Shown: positions 60,201 to 63,200 of the stretch, in pieces
Layout: every line of letters starts with the position of its first letter
Numbering within the stretch: position 1 is the first letter of the stretch
Assembly: GCF_055900595.2 (NCBI RefSeq)
Contig: NZ_CM148325.1
Direction: 5' to 3' (one strand)
DNA length: 64,000 bases
Position numbers: made by a program

Positions 60201-63200
60201 CGAGATAATCTTTATCGGTCGCGGTATCGGTGCGCGCCAGTACATACTTAGAGTTAAAGATGTTAAGACCTTTATTCTCCATTGCGCCCATATTGAAGAA
60301 ATCCACCGCGACTATCATATAGATGTCGAGGTCATACTCCAGACCGAAGCGTTCTTCATCCCACTTCATGGAATTTTTCAGCGAGGTCATCGCCCACGGT
60401 GCACGGTCGAGATTACCACGATCAACATACAGCTCCAGCGCCACTTCGCGACCAGAACGCGTGGTGAAGGTGTCGCGCAGTACATCAAAGTCACCTGCCA
60501 CCAGCGCAAACAGGTAGCACGGTTTCGGGAACGGGTCCTGCCATTGTACCCAGTGGCGTCCATTTTCCAGTTCGCCTTGCGCAACGCGGTTACCGTTGGA
60601 AAGCAGGAACGGGTATTTGGTTTTATCGGCAATAATTTTGGTGGTAAAACGCGCCAGCACGTCCGGGCGGTCGAGATAATACGTAATATGGCGGAAACCT
60701 TCGGCTTCACACTGGGTGCAAAGCGCATCGCCTGACTGATAAAGCCCTTCCAGCGCAGTATTCGCCGCTGGGCTAATTTCATTAACGATCTTGAGCGTAA
60801 AACGCTCCGGCAAATTACTGATGACCAGTGCGCCCTCTTCTTCTTTCCAGGCGGTCCACGGCTCATCATTAATATGAACAGAAACCAGTTTAAGATCTTC
60901 GCCATCAAGACGAAGCGGAGCATCTGATGCACCATGACGGACAGCCTGGCTGACCGCGGTAACGACCGTCTTTTGCGCGTCCAGGTCAAAGGTCAAGTCA
61001 ATATCAGTAATCTGGTAATCCGGCGCACGATAATCGTGACGGTATTTGGCTTGTGGCTGTTGAGTCATAAATAACCTTTAGCATCTTTTATAGAGTCTGG
61101 TGTTCAGTCTATTCCTGTTGCGTAAATCGCGCTATGCAGAATCTTCATCTTTTCAGGTACAAACGCCTTTATTGCTACATTTTTATAACATACGCAGCGC
61201 AATACCATCGACCAGAAAGGTGACATATGGTGTGATCGGGGTTCAATAAATTACGAAACAAGGTATACTCCAGCAGTTCCTGAAGATGTTTATTGTACTA
61301 AACGCTCCTGTACGAGGACGCTACTGCGCACCTATGACACAATTCGCTTCTCCTGTTCTGCACTCGTTGCTGGATACAGATGCTTATAAGTTGCATATGC
61401 AGCAAGCCGTGTTTCATCACTATTACGATGTGCATGTCGCGGCGGAGTTTCGTTGCCGAGGTGACGATCTGCTGGGTATTTATGCCGATGCTATTCGTGA
61501 ACAGGTTCAGGCGATGCAGCACCTGCGCCTGCAGGATGATGAATATCAGTGGCTCTCTGCCCTGCCTTTCTTTAAGGCCGACTATCTTAACTGGCTACGC
61601 GAATTCCGCTTTAACCCGGAACAAGTCACCGTGTCCAATGATAATGGCAAGCTGGATATTCGTTTAAGCGGCCCGTGGCGCGAAGTTATCCTCTGGGAAG
61701 TTCCTTTGCTGGCGGTTATCAGTGAAATGGTGCATCGCTATCGCTCACCGCAGGCTGACGTCGCGCAAGCCCTCGACACGCTGGAAAGCAAATTAGTCGA
61801 CTTCTCGGCATTAACCGCCGATCTTGATATGTCGCGCTTCCATCTGATGGATTTTGGCACCCGCCGACGTTTTTCTCGCGAAGTACAAGAAACCATCGTG
61901 AAACGTCTGCAACAGGAATCCTGGTTCGTAGGCACCAGCAACTACGATCTGGCGCGTCGGCTTTCCCTCACGCCAATGGGAACACAAGCACACGAATGGT
62001 TCCAGGCGCATCAGCAAATCAGTCCGGATCTTGCCAACAGCCAGCGAGCTGCACTTGCTGCCTGGCTGGAAGAGTATCCTGACCAACTTGGCATTGCGTT
62101 AACCGACTGTATTACCATGGATGCTTTCCTGCGAGATTTCGGCGTAGAATTTGCCAGCCGCTATCAGGGCTTGCGTCATGACTCCGGCGACCCGGTTGAA
62201 TGGGGTGAAAAAGCCATTGCACATTATGAGAAGCTGGGAATTGATCCACAGAGTAAAACGCTGGTTTTCTCTGACAATCTGGATTTACGCAAAGCGGTTG
62301 AGCTATACCGCCATTTCTCTTCCCGCGTGCAATTAAGTTTTGGTATTGGGACTCGCCTGACCTGCGATATCCCCCAGGTAAAACCCCTGAATATTGTCAT
62401 TAAGTTGGTTGAGTGTAACGGTAAACCGGTGGCGAAACTTTCTGACAGCCCTGGCAAAACTATCTGCCACGATAAAGCGTTTGTTCGGGCGCTGCGCAAA
62501 GCGTTCGACCTTCCGCATATTAAAAAAGCCAGTTAATATCATCAGGGAGCTAATCGGCTCCCTTTTTTTACCTTTAATTCCGAAATCTTTCGCTGCATTT
62601 GCGAATTCTGCTTGTCTGATTGCAGATGCCAGGTAACATAGGTATCCCCCCATTTACGGGTGGACAAGTGTTTATTTTTTCCGACTATTAACAGAGAGAA
62701 TATTATGAGCGTTGTGCCTGTAGCCGACGTACTCCAGGGCCGCGTAGCCGTTGACAGCGAAGTCACCGTGCGCGGATGGGTACGTACCCGCCGAGATTCA
62801 AAAGCTGGCATCTCCTTCCTCGCCGTTTATGACGGTTCCTGCTTTGATCCTGTACAGGCTGTCATCAATAATTCTCTGCCCAATTACAATGAAGACGTCT
62901 TGCGTCTGACCACCGGCTGCTCGGTCATTGTGACGGGTAAAGTCGTGGCGTCGCCGGGCCAGGGGCAACAATTTGAAATTCAGGCCAGCAAGGTTGAAGT
63001 TGCTGGTTGGGTTGAAGATCCAGACACTTACCCGATGGCGGCAAAACGCCACAGCATTGAGTATCTGCGTGAAGTCGCTCACCTGCGTCCGCGCACAAAC
63101 CTGATTGGTGCCGTCGCGCGCGTTCGCCATACGCTGGCGCAGGCGCTGCATCGCTTCTTTAACGAGCAGGGATTCTTCTGGGTTTCAACGCCACTGATTA

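Follow-up and report, generated by a model that had tools for sequence, protein, structure and literature searches.

The region upstream of pncB in Escherichia coli raises a simple question: does the imperfect palindrome in the leader of this gene act as the operator through which the repressor NadR controls nicotinate salvage? The window examined here is a stretch of 64,000 nucleotides of E. coli chromosome (NCBI RefSeq assembly GCF_055900595.2, contig NZ_CM148325.1), in which pepN lies on the minus strand (58456-61068) and is followed by pncB on the plus strand. The 801 nt around the site find a match in 5425 of the 5426 complete E. coli genomes, where the annotation reads pepN / pncB. The initial annotation had proposed a candidate NadR operator at 61287-61304 and described pncB as a gene repressed by NAD. 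The literature agrees on the gene: the downstream gene is pncB, which reviews (including PMC2330245) name as NadR-repressed in E. coli and Salmonella, with NAD as the co-repressor (PMC2330245, PMC2330246).

We conclude that 61287-61304 is very probably the NadR operator of E. coli pncB, a site that has already been described. Descriptions of pncB repression by NadR and of the TGTTTA-N6-TAAACA operator go back to the 1990s, and comparative-genomic reconstructions of the regulon list both. The value of the present analysis lies in confirmation of a correctly placed site, which is referred here to an experimentally mapped start and belongs among the sharpest intergenic footprints. Its mildly new aspects are descriptive. 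They comprise the placement of the box within the transcript, the sharpness of the footprint, the occurrence of box-less lineages on an otherwise identical scaffold, and a possible weak antisense start that would use the box spacer as its -10 element. Derepression of pncB could help in the engineering of NAD or NMN production strains.

The candidate operator and the pncB promoter

The 18-mer TGTTTATTGTACTAAACG / tgtttattgtactaaacg occupies 61287-61304 on the plus strand, upstream of E. coli pncB. It carries TGTTTA and TAAAC in inverted orientation, as the initial annotation had stated, and the two half-sites (TGTTTA / TAAACG) can pair at 5 of 6 positions. The palindromic core that was also claimed for it did not stand, as it amounts to a GTAC in the spacer that lies 1 bp off the dyad centre and outside the symmetry of the box. 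A search for inverted repeats with 6-nt exact seeds did not list the box, because its arms are only 5/6 complementary. The gap between the box and the pncB ATG at 61334 measures 29 nt, close to the 30 bp originally given. The features that define the locus are as follows, in window coordinates.

61242-61247, plus strand: probable weak -35 hexamer TTCAAT, assigned from position and conservation
61264-61269, plus strand: pncB -10 hexamer TATACT, ending 6 nt before the mapped start
61276, plus strand: pncB transcription start (G), the K-12 start of Kim et al. 2012 placed through identical sequence
61276-61333, plus strand: pncB 5' untranslated leader of 58 nt, from the mapped start to the ATG, which includes the putative operator
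61287-61304, no strand: probable NadR operator (NAD box) TGTTTA-TTGTAC-TAAACG, from an 11/12 consensus match and conservation
61287-61292, no strand: left half-site TGTTTA, invariant in 55/55 box-bearing sequences
61299-61304, no strand: right half-site TAAACG (consensus TAAACA), invariant in 55/55 box-bearing sequences
61334-62536, plus strand: pncB coding sequence, nicotinate phosphoribosyltransferase of 400 aa (open reading frame, RefSeq annotation, Pfam NAPRTase_N and NAPRTase)

The pncB start in K-12 was mapped by Kim et al. 2012 (PMC3415461, supplementary file 2) with 180 reads and a 58-nt 5' UTR, and the promoter string given in that work (PMC3415461) ends ...GGTATACTCCAGCAG / ...AAGGTATACTCCAGCAG. 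Relative to this start, the box spans +12 to +29 of the pncB transcript, just 3' of the TATACT -10 element. This hexamer is conserved across 81 sequences, save for one C-to-T change at the last-but-one base, and is invariant in the 55 that bear the box. The TTCAAT element matches TTGACA at 3 of 6 positions and is separated from the -10 by a 16-bp spacer. A scan of 61000-61400 with promoter and terminator consensus models returned no site, and it was blank at the pncB promoter because the -35 element is weak.

Two other conserved elements lie close by. Just 5' of the -35 region, GTGTGATC (61230-61237) is almost invariant across sequences and resembles the CRP half-site TGTGA; its other half is poor, and its spacing to the start site is non-canonical. 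Between the box and the ATG, the leader block GCTCCTGTACGAGGACGCTACTGCGCACC (61304-61332) is strongly conserved, box-less species included. A GAGGA within it resembles a Shine-Dalgarno sequence but stands 15 nt from the ATG, an unusually long distance, and the leader has no obvious ribosome-binding site nearer to the start codon.

The annotated product begins MTQFASPVL.... An N-terminally extended PncB, which would start at an in-frame ATG at 61286 (a 416-aa open reading frame that overlaps the box), was considered and rejected. The A of this ATG is common to fewer than 20% of the box-bearing species, the gap between the box and the annotated ATG is either 28 or 29 nt so that the reading frame is not kept, and the codon lies only 10 nt from the transcription start.

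Matching boxes at other NadR targets

The motif named in the initial annotation proved to be the published consensus, a palindromic 18-bp TGTTTA-N6-TAAACA (PMC2330245, PMC2330246). The pncB site agrees with it at 11 of 12 specified positions and has the exact 6-bp spacing; the sole mismatch is the change of the final A to G. An identical box is present upstream of pncB in K-12 MG1655. The comparison with nadA and nadB that had been suggested for this site recovered the same motif upstream of both genes in K-12. The nadA box, TGTTTAgcatatAAAACA, has one consensus mismatch, as at pncB, and the nadB box, TGTTTAgtaaatTAAACA, is perfect. The predicted operator of Proteus niaP is TGTTTAGTATACTAAACA (PMC2330245). 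The pncB, nadA, nadB, and niaP boxes thus have half-sites in common but not spacers, the pattern that a dimeric helix-turn-helix repressor would produce. In K-12 NadR, the enzyme domains follow an N-terminal HTH_3 domain (residues 7-59). The nadR gene occurs in 5424 of the 5426 complete E. coli genomes; it lies outside the window, so its presence in this strain is taken from its prevalence in the species.

The nadB and nadA-pnuC operators share their 18-bp architecture with the pncB site, together with the same repressor and the co-repressor NAD according to the literature (PMC2330245, PMC2330246). What distinguishes the pncB box from the consensus is its terminal G, and what distinguishes the three boxes from one another is their placement. 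With the nadA start that Kim et al. 2012 (PMC3415461) tabulate, 36 nt upstream of the ATG, the nadA box falls at -54 to -37; the nadB box ends 6 nt before its ATG, and that of pncB lies downstream of the start. Such varied promoter positions are consistent with simple steric repression.

At pncB, transcription would proceed from 61276 through the TATACT -10 and the weak -35 element. When NAD is plentiful, the N-terminal helix-turn-helix domains of a NadR dimer, with NAD as co-repressor, would contact TGTTTA and TAAACG. The box coincides with the downstream edge of the RNA polymerase footprint, from which we infer that bound NadR would interfere with open-complex formation or with promoter escape, or would serve as a roadblock. 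Less nicotinate phosphoribosyltransferase would then be made, and the salvage of nicotinate would be lowered. A fall in NAD would release NadR from the DNA and derepress pncB.

The lac operator O1, the LacI site centred near +11, offers a parallel for an operator downstream of the start. In both cases, a dimeric helix-turn-helix repressor would sit on a palindrome just 3' of the start and block initiation or escape. The proteins belong to different families, and LacI answers to an inducer, whereas NadR needs NAD as a co-repressor. No auxiliary operator or looping was seen for pncB, and the pepN-pncB intergenic region contains no second NadR box at up to 3 mismatches.

Direct work on NadR has concentrated on other targets. 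A 2025 EMSA study dealt with the nadB and nadA-pnuC promoters only, and our literature search for NadR ChIP data found none; papers on ppGpp binding and on single-target transcription factors mention NadR without site data. The pncB site is catalogued by Gerasimova and Gelfand 2005, and the NadR regulog of Leyn et al. 2016 has the same gene, the same regulator, and a lineage-restricted distribution. The box at 61287-61304 appears to be the same site, with no difference in kind.

Cross-species footprint and competing readings

A PncB scan of species-representative genomes yielded 80 Enterobacteriaceae loci besides the window. The box occurs at the equivalent place, 28-29 nt before the ATG, in 54 of these 80 species, whose genera include Escherichia, Salmonella, Citrobacter, Enterobacter, Lelliottia, Leclercia, and Kluyvera, as well as Kosakonia, Phytobacter, Pluralibacter, and Pseudocitrobacter. 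Across these 54 species and the window, all twelve half-site bases are invariant, the non-consensus G included. Within the box only positions 7 and 9, both in the spacer, vary; the TAC at spacer positions 10-12 is the same in all 55 sequences. When the 55 distinct upstream regions are aligned, conservation starts sharply at 61287, directly after a variable stretch (61275-61286) whose last position is common to fewer than 20% of the box-bearing sequences. The pepN-pncB intergenic region is largely conserved in these genera, and conservation alone is thus not specific to the box. In the 330 kb of related loci that were searched, 54 of the 56 matches with at most one mismatch fall at this position.

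Within E. coli, the 77 nt that run from the -10 element to the ATG, box included, are conserved to at least 99% identity in 5404 of 5425 genomes. The wider segment 60900-61700 reaches an identity of at least 99% in only 15 of 5425 genomes, the others lying at 95-99%, a pattern that points to a less common E. coli lineage as the source of the window. The differences between the window and K-12 lie upstream of the core promoter, with none in the box.

How far could such a match arise by chance, as an A+T-rich palindrome without function? Base composition predicts about 8 matches at no more than one mismatch in a 4.6-Mb genome, and when the window was shuffled 100 times, 9 of the shuffles gave at least one. 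The pncB site is nevertheless the only such match in the 64-kb window, against an expectation of 0.10 from shuffling and 0.11 from composition. The composition-based figure falls to 5e-4 for the 265-bp intergenic region and to about 1e-4 for the 58-nt leader, and it is in this leader, that of one of the few NAD genes, that the match lies. At up to 2 mismatches, the window holds 6 matches against 2.2 expected, which is not clearly above chance, and the five 2-mismatch matches elsewhere in the window are probably noise. The footprint tells against chance: 54 other species retain the box, unaltered and at the equivalent position, beside a stretch that varies freely. A chance origin is in effect refuted by this comparison, and we give it a negligible probability. 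Two further readings accept the conservation and assign it to another function. The sequence might be kept mainly because TACAAT (minus strand, 61297-61292) serves a promoter directed towards pepN as its -10 element, the likeness to a NadR box being secondary. Kim et al. 2012 (PMC3415461) list a minus-strand start at 61284, 7 nt downstream of TACAAT, and the invariance of the TAC in the spacer also speaks for this reading. This start has 5 reads against the 180 of pncB, however, and three other pepN starts lie nearer to the gene (61175, 61099, and the leaderless 61068). Inspection revealed no credible -35 element for it. Moreover, other genera have spacer changes that weaken the hexamer (TACATT, TAGATT, TACAGT) and leave the half-sites intact, and neither the invariance of the outer half-sites nor the match to the nadA and nadB boxes would be explained. 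As the main reason for the conservation, a pepN-directed promoter is therefore very unlikely, and it would represent an added function at most.

The position of the box inside the transcribed leader suggests, in turn, that the inverted repeat might act as RNA, with a UGUUUA/UAAACG hairpin that affects mRNA stability or translation without NadR. The predicted minimum-energy fold of the leader does contain a 6-bp stem, in which the non-consensus G permits a U-G pair. That stem is short and mostly A-U, though, and the leader as a whole folds no better than expected (z = -0.10, with 90 of 200 shuffles at least as stable). Both arms are invariant, so no compensatory changes occur. The half-sites of nadA and nadB stand at other positions relative to their genes, and the nadA box is not transcribed at all. 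A hairpin function is consequently as improbable as the pepN-directed promoter. The reading as a NadR operator is supported by the consensus match, by the shared motif at nadA and nadB, and by half-sites that are invariant in 54 other species. The box lies in the leader of an NAD salvage gene and has every property of a NadR operator that sequence can test.

As a separate observation, NadR bound to the box could also affect divergent transcription, given that the candidate TACAAT -10 lies inside the box spacer.

Lineages without the box

The pncB NadR box is absent from 26 of the 80 Enterobacteriaceae species (loci L033, L034, L038, L048, L050, L052-L057, L059-L061, L063, L065, L068, L069, L072, L073, L077-L080, L082, and L083). 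These include Klebsiella/Raoultella, Trabulsiella, Atlantibacter, Franconibacter, Siccibacter, Mangrovibacter, Superficieibacter, and Pseudescherichia. Their promoter scaffold is unchanged (GTGTGATC...TTCAATAAA...TATACT), and the downstream leader GGAAACGCTCCTGTGAGAGGATGC... is retained. About 30-60 nt before the ATG, the box is replaced by a conserved TCTTTATCTGC...GATGG / TCTTTATCTGC...GATGGAAACG, which is either the ancestral state or the site of another factor. With 54 species that carry the box and 26 that lack it on the same promoter scaffold, the locus provides a tidy illustration of regulon turnover.

The distribution fits what has been published on regulon membership. Comparative-genomic work regards nadA-pnuC as the conserved core of the NadR regulon and assigns pncB to it only "in several enterobacterial genomes"; in the NadR regulog, pncB belongs to the regulon in 6 of 11 Enterobacteriales reference genomes. 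A patchy occurrence of the box agrees with such lineage-restricted membership. A quick neighbour-joining tree of PncB places box-less groups both at basal positions and nested among box-bearing ones, and it is not robust on gain versus loss.

The terminal G of the box may have its own history. Species without the box still have ...GATGGAAACGCTCC... at the position of the right half-site, and AAACG, the 3' part of that half-site, overlaps a leader block that is conserved more widely than the box. We infer that this block is older and more widespread than the box, which may explain why the terminal G has been kept. A more elaborate proposal would make the pncB box a lineage-restricted operator laid over an older conserved leader, with its G derived from the GAAACG block, and would have the spacer TACAAT double as a weak pepN-directed -10 element, so that NadR gates divergent transcription as well. 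We consider this combination unlikely. If true, the locus would show cleanly, in a natural setting, how operators arise and turn over inside a single bacterial family.

In Klebsiella, Raoultella, and Trabulsiella, an insertion of about 60 nt separates the old -35 region from the -10 element. These genera carry a NadR-like TGTTCAATATATTAAACT with 2 mismatches about 136-139 nt before the pncB ATG, in sequence homologous to the E. coli -35 region (loci L048, L052, L053, L056, L057, L059, L061, L034, and L038). Enterobacter sp. Ag1 has no box at +12, and its synteny with pepN is lost, a 406-aa open reading frame lying upstream of pncB instead. Here a NadR box without mismatch, TGTTTAGTACTCTAAACA, stands 179 nt upstream of the pncB start codon (L079, 1304-1321). 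Since chance would supply about 0.016 perfect boxes in the 330 kb examined, this box may represent an independent NadR site.
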